Sequence record: PP993145.1
DNA length: 64,000 bases
Source: Escherichia phage phiP4
Reading direction: 5' to 3' (one strand)
Shown: in pieces, positions 32,257-64,000 of the stretch
Position numbering within the stretch: position 1 is the first letter of the stretch
How the letters are laid out: every line of letters begins with the position of its first letter
Program-made: the position numbers and the translations under genes
The notes under the pieces: model-generated
What the model was told of the DNA's origin: nothing
The model's database searches: none
The model's input: only the letters and a program-made list of their open reading frames with translations

Positions 32257-32283
32257 TAACTAGCCCATTGTAAAGTTTTGTAA

Positions 32284-32839: not shown

Positions 32840-32841
32840 AA

Positions 32842-33300: not shown

Positions 33301-33641
33301 TCATTTACGAGGGCAATCGCTTTGTTGCTAATTGCCGCCCGGCATTGTTAGCAAACTATTTAAACCAGCTTTCACCAGCTTATAAGGGCGTTATTAATAT
33401 TTACGAGGGCAAGGCGCATTATAAAATCAATGCGGTCGTTGCCCGTGAACTAGCGTTTCAATTTTTAACCTTTGCATCTTGCGACGTTCAGGTTATGGGT
33501 GAGGCGTTAATTGCAGAAAATGAAGACGATTTTATTAATATTTTCCGTAAGGTATGCACCGAGCGCCTGATAATCAAAGGCGCATATATTCAATCCACGG
33601 CTGATAGTATTGAAACAGCGTTTCGAAAGGTGGCGCAATGA
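33291..33641 (+). CDS. Hypothetical protein (116 aa)
   Basis: ORF coupled to its flanking small ORFs. No motif recognised. Confidence 0.55.
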   Translation: MQMIIYEGNRFVANCRPALLANYLNQLSPAYKGVINIYEGKAHYKINAVVARELAFQFLTFASCDVQVMGEALIAENEDDFINIFRKVCTERLIIKGAYIQSTADSIETAFRKVAQ

Positions 33642-33751
33642 AACGATGGTTTAATCACTGGTACAAGCGGTTTTTAGTACGCCGTCGCAAGTCTAGGCAT
33701 CAAGATGAGTGGCGGGAGTGGGCAAAGCGTAACGGTTGCCCACTAATATAA
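33638..33751 (+). CDS. Small Arg/Trp-rich protein (37 aa)
   Basis: MKRWFNHWYKRFLVRRRKSRHQDEWREWAKRNGCPLI, with an ATGA overlap with the upstream ORF. Confidence 0.35.
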   Translation: MKRWFNHWYKRFLVRRRKSRHQDEWREWAKRNGCPLI

Positions 33752-33790
33752 TAATCACGGGGCGCAACTATCAGGGAGTGCCCCCAATTT

Positions 33791-33813
33791 TCAAATGATA
33801 ATCATTCTCATTT
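33791..33813. promoter_or_regulatory. Fur-box-like palindrome TCAAATGATAATCATTCTCATTT
   Basis: TCAAATGATAATCATTCTC matches the 19-bp Fur consensus GATAATGATAATCATTATC at 15 of 19 positions (hand alignment). Confidence 0.5.
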
Positions 33814-34009
33814 GACCGCGCCCGCGATGGTTAGCCTGCTAATGGTTCGGGTGTTACGTGTCGCCTTGTGTGATCGTTAGCTCGCTAACTAATTTTCAAG
33901 CCTCCTCCAATTTTGCCCTTGTTTTAGTATCCCCACCAAAATTAAACGCGTTAGAATGCGTTTGAGAGCGTTTTAACGCTATATTAGAATTATTCGCTGC
34001 GTAGGAATA

Positions 34010-34143
34010 CTGTATATTTATCCAGTAGGATAAGCTGTGGATAAGTCTGTTAATAACGCCTCAAAATGGCTAGGGTTTTGTCAAGTCAAATCGTGCTGTT
34101 AATAAGTCTGTGGATAACTTAAATAACAGTGTTTCTCACTTCC
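34010..34143. repeat. Right arm of large imperfect inverted repeat (pairs with 30867..30998)
   Basis: Its reverse complement reads CAGACTTATCCACAGCTTATCCTACTGGATAAATATACAG...GAAGTGAGAAACACT..., colinear with the left arm. Confidence 0.75.
34025..34117 (-). promoter_or_regulatory. DnaA-box cluster on opposite strand: TGTGGATAA at 34036 and 34109, GTAGGATAA at 34025, degenerate TGTTAATAA at 34048 and 34097
   Basis: Two exact reverse complements of TTATCCACA plus three variants, mirroring the left arm. Confidence 0.75.
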
Positions 34144-34149
34144 GTTCTT

Positions 34150-34367
34150 AAATGAGAATCATTATCATTTGTATTTCACTATCTAACTAATAATCATTCC
34201 ACTATCTAACTAATAATCATTCCACTTTCTAAATGAGAATCATTCCGCTTTTTAAATGAGAATCATTTCACTTTTTAAATGAGATTGATTCTCATTTCAC
34301 TTTCTAAATGCGAATTATTATCATTCTCATTCCGCTTTTTAAATGAGAATGATTCTTATTATCATTC
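34150..34367. repeat. Degenerate ~23-bp tandem array (6 copies) of AAATGAGAATCATT(N)C(N)CTTTTT containing Fur-box-like palindromes
   Basis: Copies start at 34150, 34231, 34254, 34277, 34306 and 34341. The first (TTAAATGAGAATCATTATC) matches the Fur consensus at 15 of 19 positions. 34277-34297 is the palindrome AAATGAGA-TTGAT-TCTCATTT. Confidence 0.7.
34177..34222 (+). repeat. 23-bp exact tandem duplication CACTATCTAACTAATAATCATTC x2
   Basis: Read directly from the sequence. Confidence 0.85.
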
Positions 34368-34374
34368 GTATTTA

Positions 34375-34400
34375 GCGCAGAGCAATTGCTCTGCGCTTTT
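34375..34400 (+). terminator. Perfect 22-bp palindrome GCGCAGAGCAATTGCTCTGCGC followed by TTTT
   Basis: Perfect hairpin with a T-run. It separates the AT-rich Fur-like array from the iteron array. Confidence 0.55.
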
Positions 34401-35000
34401 GTGCAAATCCGACATTGCTCCACGGGTGTTACGTGCGGGCGTGTATGTGCGAATCCGACAATTTTTGGTAGTGTGCAAATCCGACCCGAAAAATTTTTAT
34501 AGTGTGCAAATCCGACAATGAATTTTCCTAAAAACTCCAGCAATCCGATGCTGCGCATCAATCCTGTGGAATTAGCTAGAGTATGTGCAAATCCGACATG
34601 GGTTTATTTGTGCGAATCCGACAAGATTTTTGTGACTTCGATTGGAGGGTGTGTGATTGTGTGGGTTTGGGGAGAAGTTGAGAGAGCGAGAGAAAATAAG
34701 AGGAGAAGCTAGAGGGGCAGCAGTGGTGGCGTGCAACGCCTGATTTGCTGCGTTTTTGGGGAGAGTTGAAAAGATTTGGGTTAATTTGAGATTAGTGGAG
34801 ATAAAGTAAAATTTTATTAGCAAAATGGGGCAAAATAGCTTGACAAGTGAAAATTTCTGTGGCTCTAAAAACTCAGGCAATCACGGGCCTTCGGCCCGAA
34901 ATAATGCTGCCATTTTCAGGAGATTATATGTTCCTAAAAACTTAGGCAATTGTGCAAATCCGACCATAAATTTCTAGAAACACAATGTGCAAATCCGACA
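34401..35000 (+). repeat. Iteron array: 8 same-orientation copies of GTGC(A/G)AATCCGAC(A/C)
   Basis: Copies at 34401, 34447, 34473, 34504, 34585, 34610, 34952 and 34987. They are interspersed with CCTAAAAACT..GGCAAT (34527, 34865, 34932) and TTTCTAGAAA-type motifs, and there is no credible ORF. Confidence 0.85.
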
Positions 35001-35043
35001 GTAATTTCTGGAAATGTGTTTTCAAAAAATGTCTCCTAGAAAT

Positions 35044-35114
35044 AACCGCCCTCCCCATAACCGCCCTGTATTAAACCGCCTAGTATATGTTCCTAGAAAC
35101 TTGGGAGAACCGCC
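35044..35114 (+). repeat. Four direct AACCGCC heptamers (35044, 35059, 35074, 35108)
   Basis: Read directly. The first three are spaced 15 bp apart. Confidence 0.6.
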
Positions 35115-35249
35115 CACTAGAAGCGTGAGATCTCGTGAGTATTTCGTGAGAACTCTGGAGTTTCTAGGAAAGTGTTGTGCCATCCTAGCAGATGAGCGGC
35201 AACCGGTGTATCATCTTGAATGTAAATTATGTGGTCAAAAGTTTTACCT

Positions 35250-35431
35250 TTAATTTAAGTATAAGATCCCCCAAGATTGGAAGAGATGCTCCACCCCTGG
35301 GATACGAATTGCGTGAGATGGTACAAAACTTCTTAAGATTTCCCTAGTCCTTCGACAAGCTACGGGGGAAATAGAAGTTTCCCATCCACCATCCGTATCC
35401 GGGTGGATCTCTTTATTCTATGTTATTTCAT
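35250..35431 (-). ncRNA. Candidate non-coding transcript/leader driven by the promoter at 35438..35466, reading into the repeat region
   Basis: No ORF longer than 10 codons lies downstream of a consensus promoter. It contains hairpins ATCCACC...GGTGGAT and GGGAAA...TTTCCC. Confidence 0.3.
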
Positions 35432-35437
35432 AGAGTT

Positions 35438-35466
35438 ATTATAACATGCAGAAATCATAACGTCAA
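35438..35466 (-). promoter_or_regulatory. Early-type sigma70 promoter (-35 TTGACG, 17 bp, -10 TATAAT) pointing toward the terminal-repeat block
   Basis: The reverse complement reads TTGACGttatgatttctgcatgtTATAAT. Confidence 0.55.
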
Positions 35467-35473
35467 GTAGAGT

Positions 35474-36364
35474 TTATTCATCGAACATGAGATTTCCTTT
35501 CATCCCCATCTCCGCATACTCCATGAGTTCTTTGATGGATCTCACGGGGTAATCTACTTTACTAAAGTTATCATAGATCTTACATGAACTCTCATACAAC
35601 TCGTTAGGTATCTGCAATTTGTTATCTGTTAGCTTCTCATAACGTGCAGAAGAATTTGTACCGTCAAACAGAACTGCGATAACTGCGGCGATTTGTTTAG
35701 TAAGATCATCTGCTCCTAGAATTATTCTATTAATAGCAATCGTTACTTCATGCTTAGGTTTAGCAGGTGGAAGGATAGGTTTGAGATCCTTAGGTAAAGG
35801 TTCTGTTCCTAGGAATCCTTCTTTTGTGCGGAACCAATAATTATCTAGATCAGATATCGTCTTAGACTTATTCCAAATAGTGAAGCAGGGTTTATTTCCT
35901 TCACGATCTCTGTATTCACGAATTGGAAGGTAATGATCAGGGAATGAATTGAGTGCATCATGCATCGGTGAGCCTGTCTTTTTGAATGACAAACCATACA
36001 ACTCATTATAATTCATAACTTCATCTTCGTAAACATGGAAATCTTTATATGCTGGAAGATTAAACCATTCCTGAAGTGAATGAACTGCAAAACGTTGTGC
36101 CCAAGCATGCATCACTAGAACTCTGTATTCTTTTACTTCATCTTTTGGAGAAGTACCTTTAGCTGTTCTAGCTGAACGAATACAGAACATCTCAACAACA
36201 CGTTTCTCATTTAAAGAGAGTTCAGAATAACAACGTTCATGGCAACCTTCTAGCATTTCTAGAAGTTCACGTAGTTTCTCTACATCGACCGGTGGAAAAG
36301 GTCTTTCTTCAACTGCGAATTTACCAGTTACACCTTTTGGTTTTCTATTACTATAAAATCCCAT
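35474..36364 (-). CDS. Hypothetical early protein (296 aa)
   Basis: Long ORF, ATGA-coupled to the upstream gene. No motif recognised. Confidence 0.7.
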   Translation of the reverse strand: MGFYSNRKPKGVTGKFAVEERPFPPVDVEKLRELLEMLEGCHERCYSELSLNEKRVVEMFCIRSARTAKGTSPKDEVKEYRVLVMHAWAQRFAVHSLQEWFNLPAYKDFHVYEDEVMNYNELYGLSFKKTGSPMHDALNSFPDHYLPIREYRDREGNKPCFTIWNKSKTISDLDNYWFRTKEGFLGTEPLPKDLKPILPPAKPKHEVTIAINRIILGADDLTKQIAAVIAVLFDGTNSSARYEKLTDNKLQIPNELYESSCKIYDNFSKVDYPVRSIKELMEYAEMGMKGNLMFDE

Positions 36365-36966
36365 TAATTACCTCTCTTATCTTCATTAATAGCAGCTCCC
36401 AACGCTTCAAGGATAGCATCACTCATACTCCCAGGCTTAAGATTATTAAAGTGAGTAACATAAATGGGACTTCTAAAACCCTTAGCATCCGCAGGTGCTA
36501 CGCTTCGCATATCAGATTCAAAAGCTTCTTGAGTGTGTTTCAACTGTACAGAAGGGCCGTAATCTTCCCCAAACTTATATGACTGCGTACTACTTACCAC
36601 ACTCCCACAAGGAACATTGTGCAAATCCGGTGATTTATTTAGCATTGAGATTGTCCCTGACTGCCACGGATCTCTAATAGTCACTGGAGTACTAGGGCGG
36701 TTCACCTCAGTCTTCACAAGTTTATATCCTGCATCGATTAATACGTTAATTAGATTATCAGCTGGGATGCGAGCCTTACCAAAAATCTTACGAGCATCTT
36801 CGAGCTTATCCTCAAGATCTTTACACGCTCTAAGGTCAGTGTGTGCAAATGTTAGCTTCATGGATTTGAATTGTACAGTAGCAGTTAGATCTTTAAAGCT
36901 ATAATCCCATGTGTTCAGTTCATGGTCTGGTACTACTTGAATAGATTGTTGTACATTAAAAGTCAT
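36364..36966 (-). CDS. Hypothetical early protein (200 aa)
   Basis: ORF coupled to its neighbours. Confidence 0.7.
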   Translation of the reverse strand: MTFNVQQSIQVVPDHELNTWDYSFKDLTATVQFKSMKLTFAHTDLRACKDLEDKLEDARKIFGKARIPADNLINVLIDAGYKLVKTEVNRPSTPVTIRDPWQSGTISMLNKSPDLHNVPCGSVVSSTQSYKFGEDYGPSVQLKHTQEAFESDMRSVAPADAKGFRSPIYVTHFNNLKPGSMSDAILEALGAAINEDKRGN

Positions 36967-37151
36967 TATTTATTCTCCAGTTTGTCTAATAGCTTATGAG
37001 CTGCTAGATTATATTGTTTGAGTTCACGATTAAGGATTTGATTCTCACACTTTAGCTCTAGATTCTTATTATTAAGAATATTGCAGATTAGTAGAAGTGC
37101 TAATATTAGTAACAGAGAACCTACGAGCATTAAAAGAAAAAGAGTTTCCAT
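36966..37151 (-). CDS. Small membrane-anchored coiled-coil protein (61 aa)
   Basis: N-terminal TM segment LFLLMLVGSLLLILALLLICNIL followed by coiled coil. Coupled starts and stops. Confidence 0.55.
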   Translation of the reverse strand: METLFLLMLVGSLLLILALLLICNILNNKNLELKCENQILNRELKQYNLAAHKLLDKLENK

Positions 37152-37591
37152 TATTTTATCTCCATTCTTAACTTTGAAAACTTATTATACCAAACTATAT
37201 GATTATCGTCAATTACAAATTTATGATAACATGCTGGTACGGTATAAGTTCCATAATCTGTGACACGCTGCACAACCTTGTGTGCACACAGTCGACAACC
37301 ATGCCCTTCTAAATGAGATCTAGCAGTTTGCCAGTAATAACCATCATGATCTGGACAATAGATCTCGACTTGCTGTTGCATTGTTTTGTAATTTACACGC
37401 TCATATCCAAAGAAAGCTCCATGAACTGCAACAGCTTTCTTGATAAATATAAGGTTTAGTGCTTCTTGTTGAAAGTCGGGATGTAGCTGCTTAATCTTAG
37501 TTCTATTAATAGATCCATCCGATTTGATGAACCTATTTATTGGAAAGTTGTTAGCTTCCTCGATTAGTAATTCATTTACTTTTTCTCTCAT
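37151..37591 (-). CDS. Hypothetical protein with Cys/His cluster (146 aa from ATG 37591; ORF track start 37693)
   Basis: CPDHDGYYWQTARSHLEGHGCRLC is a zinc-ribbon-like motif. The TAATATG junction with the upstream ORF argues for the shorter start. Confidence 0.5.
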   Translation of the reverse strand: MREKVNELLIEEANNFPINRFIKSDGSINRTKIKQLHPDFQQEALNLIFIKKAVAVHGAFFGYERVNYKTMQQQVEIYCPDHDGYYWQTARSHLEGHGCRLCAHKVVQRVTDYGTYTVPACYHKFVIDDNHIVWYNKFSKLRMEIK

Positions 37592-37592
37592 A

Positions 37593-37796
37593 TTATATAC
37601 TCTCACAGCTAAGGTAAAAACATTCGTAAGCATCACCAGTAAACTCTTTATCTTGTAGTATACATTTAGCCTGGTCTTCTGGTACTCCGGCATCTAATAA
37701 TTGTTGTTTACTTGGCTTTTCAGCGAATACTTTTACAAAATATTCACCATCCTGATTATACTCATTTATATCTCTAGTAAGGACATATAATTGCAT
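37593..37796 (-). CDS. Hypothetical protein (67 aa from SD-preceded ATG 37796)
   Basis: AAGGAACTTCAGATG context. The longer ORF-track start would lie inside the terminator T-run. Confidence 0.5.
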   Translation of the reverse strand: MQLYVLTRDINEYNQDGEYFVKVFAEKPSKQQLLDAGVPEDQAKCILQDKEFTGDAYECFYLSCESI

Positions 37797-37810
37797 CTGA
37801 AGTTCCTTGA

Positions 37811-37844
37811 AACACAAAAGGCCAGAACAATTAAGTCCTGGCCT
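37811..37844 (-). terminator. Rho-independent terminator
   Basis: Minus-strand GGCCAG...CTGGCC stem followed by TTTTGTGTTT. Confidence 0.6.
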
Positions 37845-37850
37845 CTAGAA

Positions 37851-38222
37851 TTAATGAAGTTGTTTACCACTTCTTAAAATAGTGGCCGTTTCCATAAGAT
37901 TTAACGTTGTATCACGCTTTTTGATTTGTTTGTCGAGTTCATCGGTACGTTTGCCAATGTAAGCGTTAATAGCCATATTCATAGCGGAGGCGAGATCTTC
38001 TTTGGTTATCTCTTCGTCATCTAAGGCTAATTTAGCCAAAGAATCGAAAGTACTAGAAAGTCCTATAAGATCAGAAGCTTCCCCAGCCAAAATAGGGTTA
38101 ACATTATCTATTGTTACTTCTAGCATAGAGTTAACAATATCTTCTCCGTCTACTAGACCAGATTCAATATTACTCTCCCATTCCTTCATCTGCTCCAGCA
38201 ATGGATTTTTCTTTTCTGTCAT
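37851..38222 (-). CDS. Hypothetical acidic protein (123 aa)
   Basis: ORF only; no motif recognised. Confidence 0.6.
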   Translation of the reverse strand: MTEKKNPLLEQMKEWESNIESGLVDGEDIVNSMLEVTIDNVNPILAGEASDLIGLSSTFDSLAKLALDDEEITKEDLASAMNMAINAYIGKRTDELDKQIKKRDTTLNLMETATILRSGKQLH

Positions 38223-38631
38223 GGTAGAGGTTTCCTGTGTCAGTTGGTAAGAAGGACGATTGAGCTTTAGGCGGATGTTGTTTAGTAATCCAGTTAAGAA
38301 TCAGTACACGACTAGGAACAATATCAGTGTTGCACCAAAAATCATGAACCCATTGACGAGCATCCTCAAACTTACCAAATTTATATGCTTTCTTAAATAA
38401 TTCAAACCCAAAACAATCTGGTGTAAAGTCTACTTCACGATATTGAATTACTTTAGAACCAGTTAGGTCTTGGATCGCTGCATTAATTTCTGTATGCGAG
38501 AATTTTGTTTCGTGAAACTTATTAAAGAATCGGTAGTTGAAGCGTCCGTTCGTTTCGACAAACAACTGGATGAAGAGATCGTTAAATTGGTTATCAAACC
38601 AGTAATTCTGTAGTTGTTGTAGTGCTGTCAT
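38170..38631 (-). CDS. Hypothetical protein (153 aa)
   Basis: ORF that overlaps the downstream gene start by 53 nt. Confidence 0.6.
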   Translation of the reverse strand: MTALQQLQNYWFDNQFNDLFIQLFVETNGRFNYRFFNKFHETKFSHTEINAAIQDLTGSKVIQYREVDFTPDCFGFELFKKAYKFGKFEDARQWVHDFWCNTDIVPSRVLILNWITKQHPPKAQSSFLPTDTGNLYHDRKEKSIAGADEGMGE

Positions 38632-52807: not shown

Positions 52808-53021
52808 CTTCGGGTTCTCGTTGCTGTGCTACTTCTAGCCAGTCTGGTAGAAGAAACTTTGTACGAAATTCTTCGTAAGTTTCTTTGGGATAAAAGCTAA
52901 AACCTCCTTTCTCATCATTCAGGATAACAGAGCCGTCCGTTTGTTCGTATGCTCGGTATGTTTCTCCAATAACAATAACTCGTTTATCGGTACTTTTATT
53001 ACGAAACTCAAAAACGTGCAT
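52800..53021 (-). CDS. Hypothetical protein (73 aa)
   Basis: ORF only; no motif recognised. Confidence 0.5.
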   Translation of the reverse strand: MHVFEFRNKSTDKRVIVIGETYRAYEQTDGSVILNDEKGGFSFYPKETYEEFRTKFLLPDWLEVAQQREPEDG

Positions 53022-53037
53022 AACGTTTCCTTAAAGT

Positions 53038-53113
53038 TGGAGCGGCTAGAGGGAATCGAACCCTACTCAGCGAGGCTTGGAAGGCCTGCGACACAACCCG
53101 TGTGCTTAACCGC
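53038..53113 (-). tRNA. tRNA-Gly (TCC)
   Basis: Acceptor GCGGTTA/TAGCCGC, anticodon loop CTTCCAA, T loop TTCGATT, encoded CCA. Confidence 0.75.
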
Positions 53114-53121
53114 TTATTATT

Positions 53122-53197
53122 TGGCTGGAGAAGGAGGAATCGAACCTACCATTAACGGAGTCAAAGGCCGTTGTGCTAACCGTTACACTACTCTCCA
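53122..53197 (-). tRNA. tRNA-Gln (TTG)
   Basis: U1:A72 and G73 as in E. coli tRNA-Gln. Anticodon loop CTTTGAC, encoded CCA. Confidence 0.8.
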
Positions 53198-53203
53198 ATT
53201 GTT

Positions 53204-53279
53204 TGGCTGGGATGCCACGGATCGAACGTGGAACCTTCGGAGTCAGAGGCCGACGATCTGCCAATTGATCTACATCCCA
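53204..53279 (-). tRNA. tRNA-Gln (CTG)
   Basis: U1:A72 and G73. Anticodon loop CTCTGAC, encoded CCA. Confidence 0.75.
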
Positions 53280-53288
53280 AGAATGCTA

Positions 53289-53525
53289 TTAGCTAGATGC
53301 TGTTTCTACTGGCTGAGAAACAGCAGGCTGTTCTAACGTATCTGGTGCTGATACAGAGAAAAGAGCTTGTAATGCTGCAATATCACGCTCGTAAGTATCA
53401 ATACGAGTAGTAAGAGTATCTACCATCTGTTTATGGTAGGATAAGTTATTCTGAGATTCATCTCGAAGAGTTTGCAGTTCTGCAAGACGTGTTAACATAA
53501 TTTCACTAATTAAAGCATTACTCAT
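53289..53525 (-). CDS. Coiled-coil protein (78 aa)
   Basis: ORF only; no motif recognised. Confidence 0.5.
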   Translation of the reverse strand: MSNALISEIMLTRLAELQTLRDESQNNLSYHKQMVDTLTTRIDTYERDIAALQALFSVSAPDTLEQPAVSQPVETASS

Positions 53526-53715
53526 TTGTTTCTCCTAAGTTTTCCTGTTCTTCTAAACGTTTGCCTTCATGATCTACTCGAATAACTCCGCATCCTTCGC
53601 AAATCACAACTGCACCATAACCTTCTTTGACCTCAGCTTCTGTAATCAAACCAGAAAGATCACCAGTATCTCTGCCCCACATATCAATGGAGCATTGTTT
53701 GCAGAAATCAGCCAT
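53518..53715 (-). CDS. Zinc-ribbon-like protein (65 aa)
   Basis: CKQC...CEGC Cys pairs. Confidence 0.5.
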   Translation of the reverse strand: MADFCKQCSIDMWGRDTGDLSGLITEAEVKEGYGAVVICEGCGVIRVDHEGKRLEEQENLGETNE

Positions 53716-53740
53716 ATTTTATTTCCTATTTAAGTTAATT

Positions 53741-53817
53741 TGGGGTGGCTAGTGGAATTCGAATCCACATAGGCCTGATTCACAATCAGGATCATTAACC
53801 AATTATGATATAGCCAC
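53741..53817 (-). tRNA. tRNA-His (GTG)
   Basis: Acceptor GTGGCTA/TAGCCAC, C73, CCA. Anticodon arm CCTGA-TTGTGAA-TCAGG. Confidence 0.8.
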
Positions 53818-53932
53818 AATTGAAAACTCGCAGGGTTAGCGAAACCTTCCTCAATTAGCATGTTCTAGAATACTAATCAAGTTATCTCCTATTGCACGCA
53901 GCTCAAGACGAGTACGAATTTTCAATTGTGGC
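53813..53932 (-). ncRNA. Stem-closed ~120-nt element sharing the 5' acceptor strand of tRNA-His
   Basis: Perfect 14-bp inverted repeat GCCACAATTGAAAA (53813-53826) / TTTTCAATTGTGGC (53919-53932). Confidence 0.4.
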
Positions 53933-54035
53933 GGCTCTCAGAAACTCTTCTACTCTAGCTTTAGCAGCTTACTCCCGAACGCATGTCGGGGAAGTCTTAC
54001 CAAGAGCATCAAATAGCACCGTTACACTTTGAGCC
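53933..54035 (-). ncRNA. Stem-closed ~100-nt structured spacer element
   Basis: Terminal GGCTC/GAGCC pairing and an internal CCCGA-CATGCGT-TCGGG hairpin. No ORF. Confidence 0.25.
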
Positions 54036-54046
54036 ATAGATGTATC

Positions 54047-54178
54047 AAGAAGCAGAAGGATTTGAACCTTCACGAGATAGACCAGTTATCTCAGCCGCTT
54101 TATGAGGTATGTTGCAGGGAGTGGATGTTCCCTATAAACCTTTTAGGCAGCCCCGTCTACCGATTCCGGCATACTTCA
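54047..54178 (-). ncRNA. Oversized tRNA-like gene (132 nt): Leu-like class II scaffold with ~40-nt expansion in the anticodon-loop region, no encoded CCA
   Basis: Acceptor TGAAGTA/TGCTTCT (U1:U72 mismatch), D arm GCCGGAATCGGTAGACGG (resembles E. coli tRNA-Leu), helix GCTGC/GCGGC enclosing 48 nt, variable arm GAGATA-ACTGGTC-TATCTC, T arm GAAGG-TTCAAAT-CCTTC. Confidence 0.45.
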
Positions 54179-54186
54179 AGAATTTT

Positions 54187-54360
54187 TTATAAACCAGCAG
54201 AAGCCTCATTTAAAGCATCAACAATAGCTTCACGTTGGGTCATTCCATACCCGGTGGAATCTAGGTGTGGCAAATAAGCCATCCATCCCTTATCTGTTTC
54301 ATGAAGACATGCTTTAAATTTTTTACCATCCTTCATTGTTACAGTAACTGTTTTGCTCAT
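54187..54360 (-). CDS. HicB/UPF0150-like small protein (57 aa), not in ORF track
   Basis: Hand-translated as MSKTVTVTMKDGKKFKACLHETDKGWMAYLPHLDSTGYGMTQREAIVDALNEASAGL. The pattern G-W-x-A-x-x-P-x-L-x-x-x-G-x-G-x-T-x-x-E-A resembles HicB-type antitoxin N-domains. Confidence 0.4.
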   Translation of the reverse strand: MSKTVTVTMKDGKKFKACLHETDKGWMAYLPHLDSTGYGMTQREAIVDALNEASAGL

Positions 54361-54380
54361 AAGATTTCCTTATAGTTAAT

Positions 54381-54470
54381 TGGCAGAAGATAATGGAGTC
54401 GAACCATCACCGTATCGCTACAGCGGGCTGGTTTTCAAGACCAGTTACGTACCACTACGTCCTATCTTCT
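54381..54470 (-). tRNA. tRNA-Ser (TGA)
   Basis: Acceptor AGAAGAT/ATCTTCT, G73, CCA. Anticodon arm CTGGT-CTTGAAA-ACCAG, with a long variable arm. Confidence 0.8.
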
Positions 54471-54483
54471 AGTATTTATTATA

Positions 54484-54831
54484 CTAATAGTCACTCGTAC
54501 TAGTGAAGTTTTCTACTTTTCCACAGATTTTACAAGTCCTACGATGATAGTAGGTAATTTTTACTTTAGACCAGCCATCGTGATCATTACCTAGGTTTTC
54601 TGTTACTCCCCAAGTATGAGAACACTCATTTTCAATTTGCTTAGTAAGAGCGTTATAGCGAGTATAAAACTCCTCCTGAGCAATAGCAAATTCTTTCTGT
54701 AGTTTATCACGAGCAATAATAGCACGTTCCAGATATGTTAAATCAGGCATTCCAGCTTTTTCAGCAACATCTATAATCTTATCTTCATCTAAAGATGCTA
54801 AAAACTCTAGAGCTTTATCTTTTGTTAGCAT
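54484..54831 (-). CDS. Hypothetical protein with C-terminal zinc-ribbon-like motif (115 aa)
   Basis: CSH...CKIC motif. Confidence 0.55.
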   Translation of the reverse strand: MLTKDKALEFLASLDEDKIIDVAEKAGMPDLTYLERAIIARDKLQKEFAIAQEEFYTRYNALTKQIENECSHTWGVTENLGNDHDGWSKVKITYYHRRTCKICGKVENFTSTSDY

Positions 54832-54850
54832 TATTATTACCTCAAGTGTT

Positions 54851-54941
54851 TGGCGGAAGAGGAGAGATTTGAACTCTCAAGCCGTTTTACCAGTCAGCCA
54901 CTTTCCAAGCGGTTTTCGTCACCAATTCGATTTGCTCTTCC
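54851..54941 (-). tRNA. tRNA-Ser (GGA)
   Basis: Acceptor GGAAGAG/CTCTTCC, G73, CCA. Anticodon loop TTGGAAA, with a long variable arm. Confidence 0.75.
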
Positions 54942-54961
54942 AATAATAAGATGATGCCTCT

Positions 54962-55040
54962 ATCACACCAGGCAGTTACGCCTCGCTGGGATTCGAACCC
55001 ATTAAAACAGCTCAACCGAGATAGTAGGTTTAATTTACTC
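54962..55040 (-). pseudogene. tRNA remnant (intact T arm TGGG-TTCGAAT-CCCA with no matching 5' half)
   Basis: A T-arm consensus is present, but I could not build a full cloverleaf. An alternative hairpin AGGC-GTAACT-GCCT exists. Confidence 0.3.
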
Positions 55041-55053
55041 TGACCATCAAATT

Positions 55054-55130
55054 TGGTGCGTGACAAGGGATTCGAACCCTCAAAACCCGACTTCTAAGGA
55101 CGGTATGTATGCCAATTCCATCAATCACGC
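55054..55130 (-). tRNA. tRNA with TAG (Leu) anticodon but a short 5-nt variable loop
   Basis: Acceptor GCGTGAT/GTCACGC, A73, CCA. Leu-like D region ATGGAATTGGCATACAT, anticodon arm CCGTC-CTTAGAA-GTCGG (one U:U mismatch), variable GTTTT. Confidence 0.65.
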
Positions 55131-55135
55131 ATATT

Positions 55136-55214
55136 TGGTGGAGAATAACGGAATCGAACCGTTCTGATGTCCTCGGTGCAAGCGAGGTGTCCACTCCATG
55201 CAGACCCATTCCCC
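55136..55214 (-). tRNA. tRNA-Ala (TGC)
   Basis: G3:U70 identity pair is present (GGGGAAT/ATTCTCC). Anticodon arm CCTCG-CTTGCAC-CGAGG, encoded CCA. Confidence 0.85.
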
Positions 55215-55230
55215 AAATTCTTTAGTTTAC

Positions 55231-55410
55231 TAAGGCTATTAGCTCGGCGTAACTACAGCACCTTCGCTTCGAGCGGAAGGAACTGCGTCATCTCGCAAAC
55301 CCAATACACTATTCAGTTGCCGCTGAATCTAGTGGACCAATCTAGAACTTCTCCCGAATCAGGGGGATCGTGCTTTTTGGCAGCCAGTCCTAGGTCGAGC
55401 TAATACCTTA
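55231..55410 (-). ncRNA. Stem-closed ~180-nt structured leader element upstream of tRNA-Ala
   Basis: A ~15-bp long-range helix (TAAGGCTATTAGCTCG at 55231 / CGAGCTAATACCTTA at 55396) encloses several hairpins (TCTAG/CTAGA, TTCAG/CTGAA, CCTTC..GAAGG). No credible ORF. Confidence 0.35.
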
Positions 55411-55452
55411 GTGAACTATGATGAGGATTTCTCCTCATCAATTTATATAAAT

Positions 55453-55481
55453 ATTATAACAAGAAATTAAGCATCAAGCAA
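55453..55481 (-). promoter_or_regulatory. T5 early-type promoter (-35 TTGCTT, 17 bp, -10 TATAAT) driving a tRNA operon
   Basis: The plus strand reads attata-N17-aagcaa. Confidence 0.65.
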
Positions 55482-55500
55482 CTGCGTTTTTTCTTGAAAT

Positions 55501-55579
55501 TGGTAGATCGCCTGGGACTCGAACCCAGAACCTTCCGATTAAAAGTCGGATGCTACTAAACCTATTGAGCTAGCGATCT
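55501..55579 (-). tRNA. tRNA-Lys (TTT)
   Basis: Acceptor AGATCGC/GCGATCT, A73, CCA. Anticodon arm TCCGA-CTTTTAA-TCGGA. Confidence 0.8.
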
Positions 55580-55580
55580 A

Positions 55581-55748
55581 TTAGTAACCATTATACACTT
55601 CTTTAATAGAGTGGACTTTTAAGTAAGGGTGATTAGTACTAAACTCTACCATTACTTCATCCCAATTTTTACCATAATGAGCAAGTAAGGATTTTGATGT
55701 ATTCTTACCTAATCGTTTATCACTTACTACTAATCGAAATACTTTCAT
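55581..55748 (-). CDS. Small protein (55 aa), not in ORF track
   Basis: Hand-translated as MKVFRLVVSDKRLGKNTSKSLLAHYGKNWDEVMVEFSTNHPYLKVHSIKEVYNGY. Its stop abuts tRNA-Lys. Confidence 0.4.
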   Translation of the reverse strand: MKVFRLVVSDKRLGKNTSKSLLAHYGKNWDEVMVEFSTNHPYLKVHSIKEVYNGY

Positions 55749-55768
55749 TTCGAAATCCTCTATTAAAA

Positions 55769-55846
55769 TGGAAGCGGGTGCAGGAATCGAACCTACCTCT
55801 TTCTAGCTTATGAGACTAGCGATCTCTACCAGAGATCTAACCCGCG
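55769..55846 (-). tRNA. tRNA with CAT anticodon and a C1:U72 mismatch (possible initiator-type)
   Basis: Acceptor CGCGGGT/ACCCGCT has an unpaired 1:72 position, reminiscent of the bacterial initiator C1:A72 mismatch. Anticodon arm CTAGT-CTCATAA-GCTAG, encoded CCA. Confidence 0.65.
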
Positions 55847-55852
55847 ATTATT

Positions 55853-55928
55853 TGGTCAGTGCGGCAGGACTCGAACCTGCGACCCGAAGCATCCAAGGCT
55901 CCCACGCTACCAACTGCGCTACGCACTG
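55853..55928 (-). tRNA. tRNA-Pro (TGG)
   Basis: C1:G72 (CAGTGCG/CGCACTG), A73, CCA. Anticodon arm GGAGC-CTTGGAT-GCTTC. Confidence 0.8.
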
Positions 55929-55959
55929 TTAATTTTTGTTAACTCACTTTATAAGATAT

Positions 55960-55988
55960 ATTATACAGAGAATTAAGCAGAATAGCAA
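55960..55988 (-). promoter_or_regulatory. T5 early-type promoter (-35 TTGCTA, 17 bp, -10 TATAAT) driving a tRNA operon
   Basis: The plus strand reads attata-N17-tagcaa. Confidence 0.65.
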
Positions 55989-56008
55989 ATGAATTTTTAA
56001 TAAATTTA

Positions 56009-56122
56009 CTTATTGTGTAGGCCACCTAGAGGCTATGAACCCCACGGCTGACAAAGAAGTTTGCGAGACTTCTCTTAAATGCCAGAATAGACCCGCCGAT
56101 CTATCGGAACCTACATAATAAG
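56009..56122 (-). ncRNA. Stem-closed 114-nt structured element
   Basis: 13-bp terminal helix CTTATTGTGTAGG (56009) / CCTACATAATAAG (56110) with one mismatch. Internal 6-bp stem AGAAGT-CTCGCAA-ACTTCT with a 7-nt loop. Confidence 0.35.
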
Positions 56123-56137
56123 TAAACTTTATAGTGT

Positions 56138-56258
56138 CATTCTAGACAGGACTCGAACCTGTTATCACTTGTGCGGACTTACGAGAACCATTCTTTCACT
56201 CGAATCGAACGAGCTTCTGCCCTCGCCAAGCTGGTTTCCCCATCAACCACGCTAGAAT
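56138..56258 (-). ncRNA. Oversized tRNA-like gene (121 nt) with perfect 7-bp acceptor, canonical T arm and an internal second T-arm-like hairpin; no encoded CCA
   Basis: Acceptor ATTCTAG/CTAGAAT, T arm ACAGG-TTCGAGT-CCTGT, internal GCTCG-TTCGATT-CGAGT, D-like stem TGGTT...AACCA. Confidence 0.4.
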
Positions 56259-56271
56259 GTTTGATTGTTTT

Positions 56272-56372
56272 CAGTGCAAGAGTCCGAGTCTTGGACACGA
56301 CCGCTTCGCAAGTACATAGGCAGCTTATCATGAGTCAGCACTTCCGAATTGCTAGCTCCGTGTTCTGCACTG
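56272..56372 (-). ncRNA. Stem-closed ~100-nt structured element
   Basis: 7-bp terminal helix CAGTGCA (56272) / TGCACTG (56366). No credible ORF; 56171..56389 (+) is judged spurious. Confidence 0.25.
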
Positions 56373-56380
56373 AAATTTTA

Positions 56381-56728
56381 TTAGTTTAACCGTAAAGTAT
56401 TATCTACTTCACCATTAATTGTTCGGCATTCTTCTGGGATTGCCGGGGTAGCCTTATATTCCCACCACTCAGCACCATCATATTCCCCACGTTCTAACCA
56501 AGTTCCATCGGCAAACCATACATTACCATAAAGTAATTGTCCACCGTATCCAGAATCATATTCAAAGTCTAGGTTATTAAGAAAATCCTCAATATCTTCT
56601 TCTGTATAACCTAAAGGTAATACCCAAACTTTTTTATCCCCATAATACCCGAATTCTATTTTAATACACTTAACTTCAGAATTAGTATTTTTTAAGGCAA
56701 GTAACAACTCTTCTTTAGCATTACGCAT
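56381..56728 (-). CDS. Hypothetical protein (115 aa)
   Basis: ORF rich in Trp/Tyr/Glu. Confidence 0.55.
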   Translation of the reverse strand: MRNAKEELLLALKNTNSEVKCIKIEFGYYGDKKVWVLPLGYTEEDIEDFLNNLDFEYDSGYGGQLLYGNVWFADGTWLERGEYDGAEWWEYKATPAIPEECRTINGEVDNTLRLN

Positions 56729-56753
56729 AATATATTCTCATACTGAATTAATT

Positions 56754-56830
56754 TGGCGCGACCGATGGGATTCGAACCCACATTCTCTCCCGTGACAGGG
56801 GAGTACCATTACCAAGCCAGCCCCGGTCGC
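56754..56830 (-). tRNA. tRNA-Asp (GTC)
   Basis: Acceptor GCGACCG/CGGTCGC, G73, CCA. Anticodon arm CTCCC-CTGTCAC-GGGAG. Confidence 0.85.
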
Positions 56831-56839
56831 ATGATCTGT

Positions 56840-57025
56840 TTATTCAGCTTTGAGTTTTTCAATAGCTGCATTAAGTTCTTTAAGAAACTCTTTTCGTACA
56901 TTAAGACGATTGAGACTTACTAGTATATCATGTTTAAGTTCTTCGATGTATTTCTTCTCAACTTCAATATTGTTGATAGTGCTATCACGATGAACTTCTA
57001 ACTGTGCAATTACATTCTTGGACAT
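56840..57025 (-). CDS. Coiled-coil protein (61 aa)
   Basis: ORF only; no motif recognised. Confidence 0.45.
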   Translation of the reverse strand: MSKNVIAQLEVHRDSTINNIEVEKKYIEELKHDILVSLNRLNVRKEFLKELNAAIEKLKAE

Positions 57026-57052
57026 GCTTATTTCCTCAGTTATTAATGAAAA

Positions 57053-57125
57053 TGGTATCTGTGGCTGAATTCGATGTCAGCAATGATAGCTGGTTGGCTA
57101 CCGGTTTACTTAACTCTACACAGAA
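57053..57125 (-). pseudogene. Non-canonical tRNA-like gene (73 nt) with encoded ACCA end but aberrant D arm and 6-8-nt anticodon loop lacking U33
   Basis: Acceptor TTCTGTG/CACAGAT (U1:U72 mismatch), stem GGTAGC-CAACCA-GCTATC, T arm GCTGA-CATCGAAT-TCAGC. It lies 2 nt from the next tRNA. Confidence 0.35.
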
Positions 57126-57127
57126 TT

Positions 57128-57210
57128 TGGCGGGCCGTGTAGGATTCGAACCTACGTTGTCTTTCGACATGGATTAACAGTCCACCGCCAAACCGCTTGG
57201 CTAACGACCC
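57128..57210 (-). tRNA. tRNA with GTT (Asn) anticodon and a 13-nt long variable arm (class II-like)
   Basis: Acceptor GGGTCGT/ACGGCCC, G73, CCA. Anticodon arm GTGGA-CTGTTAA-TCCAT (like E. coli tRNA-Asn), variable region GTCGAAAGACAAC (GTC-GAAA-GAC hairpin), T arm GTAGG-TTCGAAT-CCTAC. Confidence 0.65.
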
Positions 57211-57219
57211 TAAATTTAT

Positions 57220-57360
57220 ATTGCTGACTAGGATTTTCACCTAGACGGAGTTAGCACCGTAGCGTGTAGCGGCATACCTCTCCAAACCGTGCCTCATCTT
57301 TCAATTACGGAGACAGTGTTCCTACGCGTGCCTGAATTGATTTAACAATTCTTTCAGCAA
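57220..57360 (-). ncRNA. Oversized tRNA-like element (141 nt): perfect 7-bp terminal helix plus T-arm-like hairpin
   Basis: TTGCTGA/TCAGCAA terminal helix, CTAGG-TGAAAAT-CCTAG hairpin adjacent to the 3' strand, GAATTG-TTAAAT-CAATTC stem near the 5' end. It lies 2 nt upstream of tRNA-Cys. Confidence 0.35.
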
Positions 57361-57362
57361 AT

Positions 57363-57438
57363 TGGACGACCGCATGAGATTTGAACTCACATAAAAAGGA
57401 TTTGCAATCCTTCGCCTAAGCCATTCAGCCAACGGTCG
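57363..57438 (-). tRNA. tRNA-Cys (GCA)
   Basis: U73 (the Cys identity element). Acceptor CGACCGT/GCGGTCG, anticodon arm AAGGA-TTGCAAA-TCCTT, encoded CCA. Confidence 0.8.
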
Positions 57439-57505
57439 ATTTATTATCTTTCATAACGTGCAGCTACATGGTCGGAACCACAACACTTAAATCTAACTAA
57501 TCGTT

Positions 57506-57730
57506 TCATTTAACACGCTCCGGTAGATCTTCTAGTTTATATTCAGTAGCCACATTAGCAGCATCTAAAAGTAATCCCATGTGTTTAAGGATTTTAGTGA
57601 TAGATTCGCCTTTGGCTTCTTCTACGAAAGAACGTAGATGAACAAAGTCAATTCCACCGTCCATACCAGAGAAAATATTTAGTAAGCGAAGCATTACCAG
57701 CTTACGTTCATTCAATTCTTGTTCTGTCAT
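57506..57730 (-). CDS. Hypothetical protein (74 aa from SD-preceded ATG 57730)
   Basis: TGGAGAAGCAACATG context, downstream of the promoter at 57760. Confidence 0.5.
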   Translation of the reverse strand: MTEQELNERKLVMLRLLNIFSGMDGGIDFVHLRSFVEEAKGESITKILKHMGLLLDAANVATEYKLEDLPERVK

Positions 57731-57759
57731 GTTGCTTCTCCAGTTCAATTTATATAATT

Positions 57760-57788
57760 ATTATACAGAACTTTTGGAAACTAAGCAA
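57760..57788 (-). promoter_or_regulatory. T5 early-type promoter (-35 TTGCTT, 17 bp, -10 TATAAT)
   Basis: The plus strand reads attata-N17-aagcaa. Confidence 0.65.
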
Positions 57789-58068
57789 CTACATTTTTTA
57801 AGAATTTGATGCCTTTCTTTTTCTTCTTATATTTCCACGTTAAGGGATTCTGTCGATTATGAACGCTTGAGATCTTCGTCTCGTCAAAGTTCTTCAATAT
57901 CATGTAATCACAAGATAATTGTTCTAGTGGAATGTGATCACCGTCAAAAGCGTATACATAAGGCTGTTGACTAGCACGATAATGATAGACTTTGTTAATT
58001 CTACGTTTCAGCGACTTATCCGCGCAGTAAATAAAGAAGTTTTCAGGATGCATCAGCAGCTCCTTCAA
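57781..58068 (-). CDS. Hypothetical basic protein (95 aa)
   Basis: ORF whose 3' end overlaps the next promoter. Confidence 0.5.
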   Translation of the reverse strand: MKELLMHPENFFIYCADKSLKRRINKVYHYRASQQPYVYAFDGDHIPLEQLSCDYMILKNFDETKISSVHNRQNPLTWKYKKKKKGIKFLKNVVA

Positions 58069-59287: not shown

Positions 59288-59364
59288 TGGTAGGGGTGGT
59301 GGGATTCGAACCCACAAAACCTGAATTTTAAGTCCAGTACCTATGCCAATTCGATTACACCCCC
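59288..59364 (-). tRNA. tRNA with TAA (Leu) anticodon but a short 5-nt variable loop
   Basis: Acceptor GGGGGTG/CACCCCT, A73, CCA. D region ATCGAATTGGCATAGGT, anticodon arm CTGGA-CTTAAAA-TTCAG, variable GTTTT, T arm GTGGG-TTCGAAT-CCCAC. Confidence 0.7.
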
Positions 59365-63636: not shown

Positions 63637-64000
63637 TTTAAGTATTTTTAAGAACTCTCGTAAAAACTCTTAAAAATACAGACGATACCGGGAGAGTCAT
63701 AAGTCTCACTCATTAAGTATTTCAAGACAAAATACAGTAACGTCTATTATTTTCCAGTTTAAGTCAAGGTGACTTAGTGGTTATGTCCTGCGGTATATTG
63801 AGGACTCGGTTAGGCTTGGGGTCATGACTTCCCGCCTTTTGCTGCTACTCAACAGGAGTTATCGCGAATTACCTGTGCTATTGTGCACCATTAGTGACAT
63901 CTCTCATGTCAGCATTTCCCACTTTGTGGATAGCTTGAAAAACTACTCCGATATGGAGAAAGAACTTCACTATCCTAGAATACCTTCTAAAGTTCTTCTT

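Follow-up and report, generated by a model that had tools for sequence, protein, structure and literature searches.

Escherichia phage phiP4 (sequence record PP993145.1) carries an array of tRNA genes in which ten structured non-coding RNAs are interleaved with the tRNAs, and it is these RNAs that we have analyzed here, in a stretch of 64,000 nucleotides of the phage DNA that is referred to below as the window. The 3.8-kb part of the window that holds them matches the T5-like phages (genus Tequintavirus), the best match being Escherichia phage BUCT632 at 97% identity, with 635 phage records matching. ARAGORN finds 22 tRNAs in the window, every one of them on the minus strand, so that the array is read from right to left in window coordinates, and Rfam adds three tRNA-like genes; inspection of the 3' ends bears out an earlier statement that all 25 regular tRNAs encode CCA. 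Two promoters lie among these genes. P13a (TTGCTA-17-TATAAT; positions 55960-55988, minus strand), which was located by a consensus scan and is an annotated promoter in T5 and BF23, divides one of the structured RNAs, RNAIV, from the unit formed by tRNA-Pro and tRNA-fMet, and the region of P13b with a 22-nt leader hairpin (55419-55497, minus strand) was placed by mapping the T5/BF23 promoter annotation onto the window. A preliminary description of this DNA had proposed a number of segments that are free of open reading frames (ORFs) and closed by terminal helices, and ten of ten are present on the minus strand at, or within a few bases of, the positions that it gave.

Most of these elements are already known, seven of them being long-known stable RNAs of phage T5. 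The T5 record (AY543070) lists rnaIII, rnaI, rna1, rna2H, rnaIV, rna2, rna3 and rnaX as misc_RNA genes in the matching array, with depositors' notes that read "stable RNA with unknown functions" or "tRNA-like stable RNA", and the records of BF23 (AJ604530) and DT57C (KM979354) are annotated alike, in agreement with the stable low-molecular-weight RNAs from the tRNA region of T5 that the preliminary description mentions. When the window was mapped onto T5 and each element was compared by blastn, seven of the segments noted earlier proved to be direct orthologues, 85-100% identical and with order and neighbors kept: 53813-53932 corresponds to RNAIII, 53933-54035 to RNAI, 54047-54178 to RNA1, 55231-55410 to RNA2H, 56009-56122 to RNAIV, 56138-56258 to RNA2 and 57053-57125 to RNA3. 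The T5 array has rnaIII, rnaI and rna1 upstream of tRNA-His, rna2H between P13b and tRNA-Ala, rnaIV and rna2 upstream of P13a, rna3 after tRNA-Asn and rnaX beside tRNA-Arg, and the window shows the corresponding arrangements RNA1-RNAI-RNAIII-tRNA-His, P13b-RNA2H-tRNA-Ala, RNA2-RNAIV-P13a and tRNA-Asn-RNA3. The remaining three elements, designated here by their coordinates (56269-56375, 54950-55049 and 57221-57360), are unannotated in, or absent from, the T5, BF23 and DT57C records and are relatives in kind of the other seven; for the RNAs that they do list, the depositors' records give neither structure nor function. Literature searches found no modern paper on these RNAs and no T5 small-RNA transcriptome paper, and, to our knowledge, the non-tRNA RNAs of such arrays have been overlooked from the 1980s onward, and almost no modern phage annotation includes them. 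Added here are the three unannotated members, structures backed by covariation, the tRNA-Leu origin of RNA1, conservation across the phage family and a tRNA-framed RNA that is mobile between families.

Structures and covariation of the ten RNAs

Minimum free energy (MFE) z-scores of the folds were computed against shuffled sequences, and compensatory pairs, i.e., base pairs with changes on both sides, were counted in a homologue set made up of 20 IMG/VR T5-like contigs, seven Epseptimavirus genomes, three Sugarlandvirus sources, Pectobacterium phage My1 and two Mydovirus myoviruses, with shuffles and slid-partner pairing as controls. This check for covariation, which the preliminary description had proposed, was positive for five of the RNAs: 12 compensatory pairs in RNA1 (shuffle mean 6.5), 19 in RNA2 (4.5), 11 in RNA2H (6.1), 11 in RNAIV (1.7) and 13 in 57221-57360 (2.8), with none of 300 shuffles reaching the observed count in any of them. 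It was weakly positive for 54950-55049, where four pairs compare with a shuffle mean of 1.8 and 12 of 300 shuffles reach the observed count. The slid-partner controls of this uniform analysis gave 4 or fewer pairs. A second count for RNA2H found 99.2% of cells paired and again 11 pairs (0 of 500 shuffles; slid controls 5 or fewer), and one for 57221-57360 found 97.4% paired and 13 pairs (0 of 500 shuffles; slid controls 2 or fewer). In the MAFFT alignments two helices, that of the internal T-loop hairpin of RNA2 and the closing helix of the Mydovirus copy of 57221-57360, were misplaced, so that their pair counts are underestimates. RNAIII, RNAI, RNA3 and 56269-56375 are 94-98% identical across the homologue set, which is too invariant for covariation to speak either way.

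The ancestry of one element can be read with some assurance. RNA1 (54036-54178, minus strand), annotated in T5 as a tRNA-like stable RNA, consists of an acceptor stem (acceptor-end helix of 6-7 bp), a D hairpin, an anticodon stem bearing a 48-nt arm, a long variable arm and a T arm, with an MFE z-score of -2.3; the 48-nt arm is capped by an invariant hairpin, GGGAACAUCCACUCCC, with ACAUCCAC as its apex. Both the alignment and the covariance model agree with the earlier reading of 54047-54178 as a Leu-like D arm, a class II variable arm and a 48-nt region in the place of the anticodon loop. At the gathering score Rfam 15 detects tRNAs alone in the whole 64-kb window, and at E <= 10 over 53000-58000 the single relevant extra is a match of RNA1, over 54047-54178, to the tRNA family RF00005 at 26.5 bits, under the cut-off of 29, with a large insertion of 48 nt where the anticodon loop should be; the Rfam scan suggested in the preliminary description thus gave a sub-threshold tRNA match for RNA1 and no Rfam family for any element. 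None of the ten is a canonical tRNA (RF00005 at 29 bits or more, with a 7-nt anticodon loop), none beyond RNA1 matches at E <= 10, and ARAGORN calls none. The covariance model of RNA1, R1, scores true copies at 142-171 bits and then, in a next tier at 22-26 bits, mainly class-II tRNA-Leu genes, namely annotated genes of Stitch, 150049, Sealy, P8734 and T4. By this comparison of sequence and structure models RNA1 is therefore a derivative of tRNA-Leu in which the anticodon loop has been swapped for a covarying extension with an invariant cap. The window's own tRNA-Leu genes at 55054-55130 and 59288-59364 (anticodons UAG and UAA according to ARAGORN) are 77 nt long and have 5-nt variable loops, which is a class-I body, whereas RNA1 keeps a class-II Leu-like body without an anticodon. 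The top match of R1 outside RNA1 itself is an unannotated 93-nt locus of My1 (L090:11727-11819; 32 bits), probably an unannotated class-II tRNA-Leu gene. Anticodon and intron readings of RNA1, made by eye, were dropped, the relevant bases being not conserved or mismatched.

A similar frame is evident in RNA2 (56138-56259, minus strand), the orthologue of T5 rna2, which combines an acceptor helix of 8 bp, a D arm with GG and a T arm with a long central arm (MFE z about -1.3). The central arm holds an invariant stretch, UCUCGUAA.UCCGCA, and a conserved second T-loop hairpin, in keeping with the internal T-arm-like hairpin that had been noted in 56138-56258; this hairpin, GCUCG-UUCGAUU-CGAGU, becomes UACGG-UUCRAUU-CCGUA in My1 and Sugarlandvirus, so that the stem is fully replaced and the loop UUCRAUU is kept.

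The 140-nt RNA at 57221-57360 (minus strand), delimited by its fold and covariation, has the connectivity of a tRNA. In order, a closing helix of 7 bp is followed after 2 nt by a 6-bp hairpin and, 1 nt further on, by a 10-bp helix leading to a three-way junction; 8 nt beyond this comes a hairpin of 5 bp with a 7-nt loop (UGAAAAU) that directly abuts the 3' strand of the closing helix. The junction has an invariant core (CGCGUAGG, ACGGUU and GCCGCUACACGCUACGG; core stretch GCCGCUACACGC), and the MFE z-score is -2.3. The covariance model of this RNA, R2, matches its own copies only, plus marginal global alignments to tRNA-Ile. Its core was considered by eye as a mimic of the sarcin-ricin loop, a reading that was dropped since the relevant bases are not conserved or are mismatched. 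One T5-like contig (L003:4342-4548) retains the 3' half alone, its 5' half being AT-rich, promoter-like sequence.

The fourth tRNA-like member is RNA3 (57053-57125, minus strand), an aberrant 73-nt RNA that T5 annotates as a putative tRNA-like RNA (rna3). It is cloverleaf-like, with a weak D arm, an anticodon-like loop, CAACCAG, that has no U33, and an 8-nt T-like loop; its MFE z-score is -3.3, it is 94-100% identical among its homologues, Epseptimavirus included, and neither ARAGORN nor Rfam calls it. RNA3 starts 2 nt after tRNA-Asn and ends in CACAGA-UA-CCA, i.e., with an encoded A-CCA. CCA is encoded by RNAI as well and is missing from the 3' ends of RNA1, RNA2 and 57221-57360, as had been claimed for three expanded elements. 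A further unit, 54950-55049 (minus strand), lies between tRNA-Leu(UAG) and tRNA-Ser(GGA) and had been taken for a remnant with a T arm only (~54962-55040); it is in fact a complete, helix-closed RNA of 100 nt, whose ends pair as UGAUG(GU)/(GG)CAUCA and which contains a canonical T arm, GGGUUCGAAUCCC, and a further hairpin (MFE z -0.6). This RNA is 97-100% identical in Tequintavirus and about 80% identical in Sugarlandvirus, where it keeps its position between the Leu and Ser tRNAs and shows compensatory changes in the T stem; it is present in BF23 and DT57C without annotation, and T5 has the homing endonuclease gene hegC there instead.

The other five RNAs have no comparable tRNA frame. RNAIII (53818-53927, minus strand) is 110 nt long and folds into a four-way junction (MFE z -2.5). 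Its closing helix, described earlier as 14 bp and perfect, refolds as 15 bp with 2 G-U pairs among them, and the earlier bounds (53813-53932) had taken in a part of tRNA-His (53813-53817) and the GCCA end of RNAI (53929-53932). The 3' end of RNAIII is flush with G-1 of tRNA-His. The RNA is 95-100% identical across Tequintavirus and Stitch, and in Sugarlandvirus Sealy the corresponding position is taken by a 148-nt analogue, closed by a helix of 17 bp, that is also flush with tRNA-His. RNAI (53929-54035, minus strand; 107 nt; T5 rnaI) has a 5-bp terminal helix, GGCUC/GAGCC, followed by the encoded end (GAGCC-G-CCA), and an MFE z-score of about -1.3; its Sealy homologue keeps GUAACGG and GAAGAGUUUCU.AG.GCC-R-CCA, with the terminal helix covarying to GGCCC/GGGCC. 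A hairpin of RNAI that was considered by eye as a mimic of a CRISPR repeat was dropped on the same grounds of unconserved or mismatched bases.

RNAIV (56006-56125, minus strand; 120 nt; T5 rnaIV) has cloverleaf topology with three hairpins, a closing helix of about 19 bp and an MFE z-score of -4.9, and it ends just upstream of P13a. In My1 its homologue keeps CGGCGGGU, CUCGCAA and GGGGUUCAUAGCC, has a replaced closing helix and is placed after RNA2 and tRNA-Gly, the order found in BF23. RNA2H (55229-55412, minus strand; 184 nt; T5 rna2H) is a multi-branched RNA with a closing helix of about 17 bp containing one bulged G (MFE z -3.5); it is the first product downstream of P13b, with tRNA-Ala next. 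In Epseptimavirus two of its arms are expanded or replaced and the structure is kept, and the homologue in Sealy, whose closing helix covaries, is immediately preceded by a TTGCTA-17-TATAAT promoter and followed by tRNA-Ala. The leader hairpin at 55419-55440, 9 bp of the form UGAUGAGGA-GAAA-UCCUCAUCA, stands between the -10 box of P13b and RNA2H; the Sugarlandvirus homologue, which begins right after its promoter, has no such hairpin. The unannotated 107-nt RNA at 56269-56375 (minus strand; identified by its fold) is closed by 10-12 bp (MFE z about -1.3) and lies directly downstream of a T5.067-like ORF and upstream of RNA2. It is 98-100% identical in all Tequintavirus loci, being 100% identical in T5 itself, where it falls inside an unannotated gap, and it is 94% identical in TrudiGerster, though the T5.067-like ORF is missing there.

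As a group, then, the elements are only in part the expanded tRNA-derived RNAs of the preliminary description. That reading is supported for RNA1, RNA2, RNA3 and 57221-57360 (tRNA-Leu matches of R1, tRNA arms and cloverleaf connectivity), and in at least these four a conserved module takes the place of the anticodon arm within a tRNA frame. The support does not extend to RNAIII, RNAI, RNAIV, RNA2H and 56269-56375, which share a closing helix and a multi-way junction only; in RNAIII, RNAIV, RNA2H and 56269-56375 the closing helices are long, there are three or more arms and no tRNA arm is recognizable. Nor do the ten form a family in the sense first proposed: by blastn no element matches another, and they are therefore best regarded as a set of distinct RNAs with a common context.

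The invariant loops that recur in these structures could suggest base-pairing regulatory RNAs, with the loops pairing to phage or host mRNAs, to tRNAs or to each other. Such a role also draws on a perfect 10-nt complementarity between the apical loop of RNAIV with its flanking stem bases, UCUCGCAAAC (56056-56065; the loop itself is CUCGCAA), and GUUUGCGAGA in RNA2H (55291-55300), which was the sole non-trivial one within the structured RNAs when complements of invariant motifs were sought across the window, the scattered 9-mers elsewhere being attributable to chance. This match is itself at about the chance level, however, with roughly 0.25 expected for the words tested; the two sites do not covary, and RNA2H changes to UUGUGAA in Epseptimavirus with the RNAIV loop unchanged. 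An RNAduplex screen of the RNAs against each other and against all 25 phage tRNAs found nothing beyond z = -3, unrestricted duplexes being uninformative, and we consider base pairing an unlikely mode of action.

Conservation and exchange between phages

A matrix of presence, absence and identity, in which each element was compared with 13 phages, indicates that each RNA has been gained and lost independently, as its own cassette. DT57C lacks RNA1, RNAIV, RNA2 and 56269-56375 altogether, RNAIII is missing from most Epseptimavirus genomes, and 57221-57360 occurs in only some members of each genus. Where present, the RNAs are 85-100% identical, like the tRNAs, and 75-80% identical in the Sugarlandvirus and My1 copies, while the neighboring small ORFs are 73-86% identical or absent outside Tequintavirus. 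The RNAs are thus conserved about as well as tRNAs and far above the flanking small ORFs, a pattern of sequence conservation that points to purifying selection of the kind acting on tRNAs. The spread is underestimated by blastn, as additional homologues in Sealy and My1 came to light through folding and aligning of the spacers between tRNAs. RNA1, RNA2 and 54950-55049 are detectable in Sugarlandvirus, and RNA2 in My1 too; the acceptor stem of the Sugarlandvirus RNA1 is fully replaced.

The widest range is that of 57221-57360, which was found in 219 phage records. It is missing from T5 and BF23, which have ORF T5.069 in its slot. The Sugarlandvirus copies, 86-90% identical, lie between tRNA-Asn and tRNA-Cys in an order opposite to that of the window, and the copies of the Mydovirus myoviruses (Vequintavirinae), 75-80% identical, lie between two tRNA-Ser genes; in these three lineages the homology begins and ends at the closing helix, and in three of three the RNA starts 2 nt past the CCA of the upstream tRNA. 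Several of the RNAs are thus conserved across genera of the Demerecviridae, and 57221-57360 is common also to the unrelated Mydovirus family of myoviruses. A 73-aa "DNA ligase" is annotated on the opposite strand over the Mydovirus copy (L087:2538-2759). When IMG/VR was scanned for exact patterns taken from the invariant cores of 57221-57360, RNA2 and RNA1, true matches came only from T5-like phages, Sugarlandvirus and Mydovirus, all of the environmental matches being chance ones within coding sequence. When the 3.8-kb region was compared by blastn with 5,426 complete E. coli genomes, tRNA-Asp alone was matched, so that these RNAs have no homologue in E. coli that blastn can detect.

Helix-closed RNAs in tRNA arrays extend beyond the T5-like phages, as is seen in Klebsiella phage P8734 (Mydovirus), where a 101-nt spacer between tRNA-Leu and tRNA-Phe (L088:2235-2335) has a 13-bp closing helix and three hairpins (z -4.8). 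Two spacers between tRNAs in Klebsiella phage Sealy (L089:2891-3020 and L089:5588-5725) are also strongly structured (z -3.5 and -5.7, respectively), with no counterpart recognized in the window. Some GenBank records lay "hypothetical proteins" over RNA1, RNAI and RNA2H; these protein genes, like the "DNA ligase" over the Mydovirus copy of 57221-57360, are probably mis-annotations, given that RNA2H has indels of 22 and 25 nt, which are not multiples of three.

These patterns bear on the suggestion that the elements are unselected debris, either decaying tRNA pseudogenes or tRNA genes with introns or other small insertions. There are tRNA-like pieces in RNA1, RNA2, RNA3 and 54950-55049, and homing endonucleases are active in the region, both of which such an origin would lead one to expect. 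Against it, compensatory changes run throughout the RNAs, the supposed inserts included, and conservation across genera equals that of functional tRNAs. The covariation, the invariant loops and the conservation across phage genera and families thus contradict the idea of decaying tRNA genes put forward in the preliminary description. Its alternative, intron-like genes, fares no better, because the inserts covary, the loops that are best conserved lie within them, and the stable species of the T5 annotation is the entire RNA. No group I intron or other intron family is matched by Rfam (E <= 10, 53000-58000), the helices of the inserts (40-70 nt) covary, and nothing of an anticodon loop is conserved in the 48-nt insert of RNA1. 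We regard this explanation as largely refuted already and as hardly credible for what is left of it.

Comparison with other RNAs

The layout of RNA1, RNA2 and 57221-57360 is that of the engineered tRNA scaffold of Ponchon and Dardel, in which a payload replaces the anticodon loop of a tRNA and the chimera is processed and stabilized like a tRNA in E. coli. That scaffold is a laboratory construct, and the analogy concerns a possible way of working, not ancestry or function. Among natural RNAs, tmRNA is a tRNA-shaped module fused to a non-tRNA functional domain and handled by tRNA-processing and tRNA-modifying enzymes; modules of this kind comprise an acceptor and a T arm, or T and D arms. Neither ARAGORN nor Rfam calls any of our elements a tmRNA; there is no G3:U70 pair, the third pairs of the terminal helices being C-G, A-U or G-C.

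The comparison with tmRNA raises a further possibility, that these are non-decoding but chargeable tRNA-like RNAs which, once aminoacylated, would donate amino acids, act as rescue factors in the manner of tmRNA, or tie up synthetases or EF-Tu. The R-CCA end of RNAI is kept in both Tequintavirus and Sugarlandvirus, RNA3 ends in A-CCA, and RNA1, to which CCA could be added after trimming, scores as a tRNA-Leu without its anticodon, which LeuRS does not read; T4 matures some CCA-less tRNAs using host enzymes. However, the alanine identity pair G3:U70, an ARAGORN tmRNA call and an evident resume codon or tag ORF are all lacking, RNAI has no T arm, and A73 is not conserved in RNA1, the discriminator being U in T5-like phages and A in Sugarlandvirus. 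Charging seems to us improbable, and slightly more so than the base pairing considered above.

Two other groups of RNAs invite comparison. The bacterial Y RNA YrlA likewise has a tRNA-like module that is fused to another functional domain and handled by tRNA enzymes (PMC4201824). It differs from the RNAs described here in that its ends lie in the Ro-binding stem, whereas here the ends form an acceptor-like helix; Rfam finds no YrlA match among the elements, and Pfam searches of six neighboring small ORFs found no Ro or SmpB partner encoded nearby. GOLLD and ROOL are structured phage non-coding RNAs of unknown function that are often found beside tRNAs (PMC12286853), and these differ in being Rfam families of 500-800 nt that form homo-oligomeric cages, as compared with window elements of 73-184 nt that have no match.

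The closest independent parallel is offered by species 1 (rnaC, 139 nt) and species 2 (rnaD, 119 nt) of phage T4, the resemblance being one of design and context, with no homology detected. These too are small stable RNAs inside a phage tRNA cluster, where they are located beside tRNA-Arg and the homing endonuclease gene segB. The design of T5 RNA1 recurs in rnaC, where an acceptor-like terminal helix is combined with a long central arm, a long hairpin resembling a variable arm and a canonical T arm; rnaC differs from RNA1 in that the D arm is missing, and there is no similarity in sequence or by covariance model. Searches of the T4 tRNA region with R1 and R2 matched tRNA-Leu only, and not rnaC or rnaD.

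Production and possible function

We think it probable, with moderate confidence, that the ten elements are discrete structured non-coding RNAs encoded among early tRNA genes, made together with the tRNAs, released by the tRNA machinery and acting in trans as accessory RNAs. Their existence and processing are the likely part of this proposal. Early promoters such as P13a and P13b would give transcripts that contain tRNAs and structured RNAs together. RNase P would cleave these either at a closing helix that resembles an acceptor stem or at the 5' end of the tRNA that follows, and 3' exonucleases would then remove the remaining tail as far as the closing helix; by sealing both ends this helix would confer stability, by the same logic as in the engineered tRNA scaffold. 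Co-transcription, release and trimming are suggested by spacings of 0-10 nt to the neighboring genes, by the absence of convincing terminators, by the promoters at P13a and P13b and by the promoter-proximal place of RNA2H. With regard to spacing, the 2 nt mentioned in the preliminary description agrees with the 0-2 nt that separate tRNA-Cys from 57221-57360, tRNA-Asn from RNA3 and RNAIII from tRNA-His. A scan of the array for the minus-strand terminator consensus had just two matches, the T arm of RNA1 and a hairpin within RNAIII, neither of them convincing. For the helices of 15-19 bp, RNase III is a plausible alternative to these enzymes.

It is also conceivable that the elements act purely in cis, as punctuation: structured spacers that guide the folding or cleavage of tRNA precursors and persist as stable by-products, with variants in which RNase III or RNase P would enter at them, or in which they would insulate tRNAs from small ORFs. 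The 15-19-bp helices do resemble RNase III processing stems, the elements lie exactly at unit boundaries, RNA2H is promoter-proximal in two genera, and the RNAs are dispensable. Such spacers would not explain why the RNA1 apex, the RNA2 core and the 57221-57360 core, all of them far from cleavage sites, are invariant across genera or families while the stems vary, nor why one RNA stands beside different tRNAs in different phages, and many tRNAs in these arrays are 5-8 nt apart without any such element. We therefore hold punctuation to be rather unlikely as the whole explanation.

The proposal of trans-acting RNAs that bind proteins fits the combination of variable stems, invariant loops and cores, a tRNA frame, mobility of cassettes across families and dispensability. 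The last of these can be judged from T5, where deletions of 29191-32442 and 30661-38625 are viable (PMC11464382). Together the two deletions span every one of these RNAs that is present in T5 (in AY543070 coordinates, the same coordinate system being assumed), which argues that the RNAs are accessory on laboratory E. coli. If they act in trans, the invariant apical loops and junction cores would be the working surfaces, and the most likely role would be to bind, and so titrate, those proteins of the host or of rival elements that recognize tRNA-shaped RNA, in anti-defense or in host takeover. Phage tRNAs are known to neutralize tRNA-cleaving defenses such as PARIS, Retron-Eco7 and Septu (PMC11464382, PMC11555353, PMC13096335). 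A specific decoy or anti-defense function is nevertheless offered here as a tentative idea, about which we are more doubtful than confident.

Several points weigh against the proposal as a whole. The label "stable RNA" has its basis in how the depositors annotated the records and in literature of the 1980s. The folds of RNAIII, RNAI, RNA3 and 56269-56375 are unsupported by covariation, there being almost no variation, and the extreme DNA conservation of these four may in part be due to recent exchange, or to co-conversion near the sites of homing endonucleases. It is not obvious that RNase P would recognize RNAIII, RNAIV, RNA2H and 56269-56375, as they have no T arm beside the closing helix, and the helices of 15-19 bp could be substrates of RNase III instead. 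No partner is indicated by an E. coli homologue, an Rfam family, an informative neighboring protein or significant RNA-RNA complementarity.

A broader possibility, which we put forward with the same reserve as the decoy function, is that the tRNA fold is a natural expression scaffold of large lytic phages, and that the modules grafted onto it are mobile effectors of anti-defense or takeover that are swapped between the arrays of Demerecviridae and Mydovirus. The grafted modules, each replacing the anticodon arm, would then be the apex of RNA1, the domain of RNA2 with the second T loop and the three-way-junction core of 57221-57360, and the host tRNA machinery would process and stabilize the resulting chimeras. 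Counter-defense RNAs built on a tRNA scaffold would, if real, represent a new type of phage effector, and nature would have anticipated the widely used tRNA scaffold of RNA engineering; this would also give a function to the 50-year-old species 1 and 2 of T4 and to the T5 stable RNAs. The most constrained surfaces of these RNAs have now been located, which turns an old curiosity into a set of concrete experimental targets.

A few other features of the array may be recorded. RNAX, annotated in T5 and DT57C as a "stable RNA with unknown functions" of 640-720 nt (719 nt in T5) that adjoins tRNA-Arg, would be expected in the window at 63637-64000, where it is cut by the window end; there is no Rfam match there. 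Pfam searches of the six neighboring small ORFs gave one domain of unknown function (DUF) and nothing related to RNA. A 115-aa ORF at 56384-56728, with no match to a Pfam family, has relatives in about 60 otherwise unrelated viral contigs, and the 61-aa ORF at 56843-57025, between RNA3 and tRNA-Asp, is a full-length member of DUF7337.

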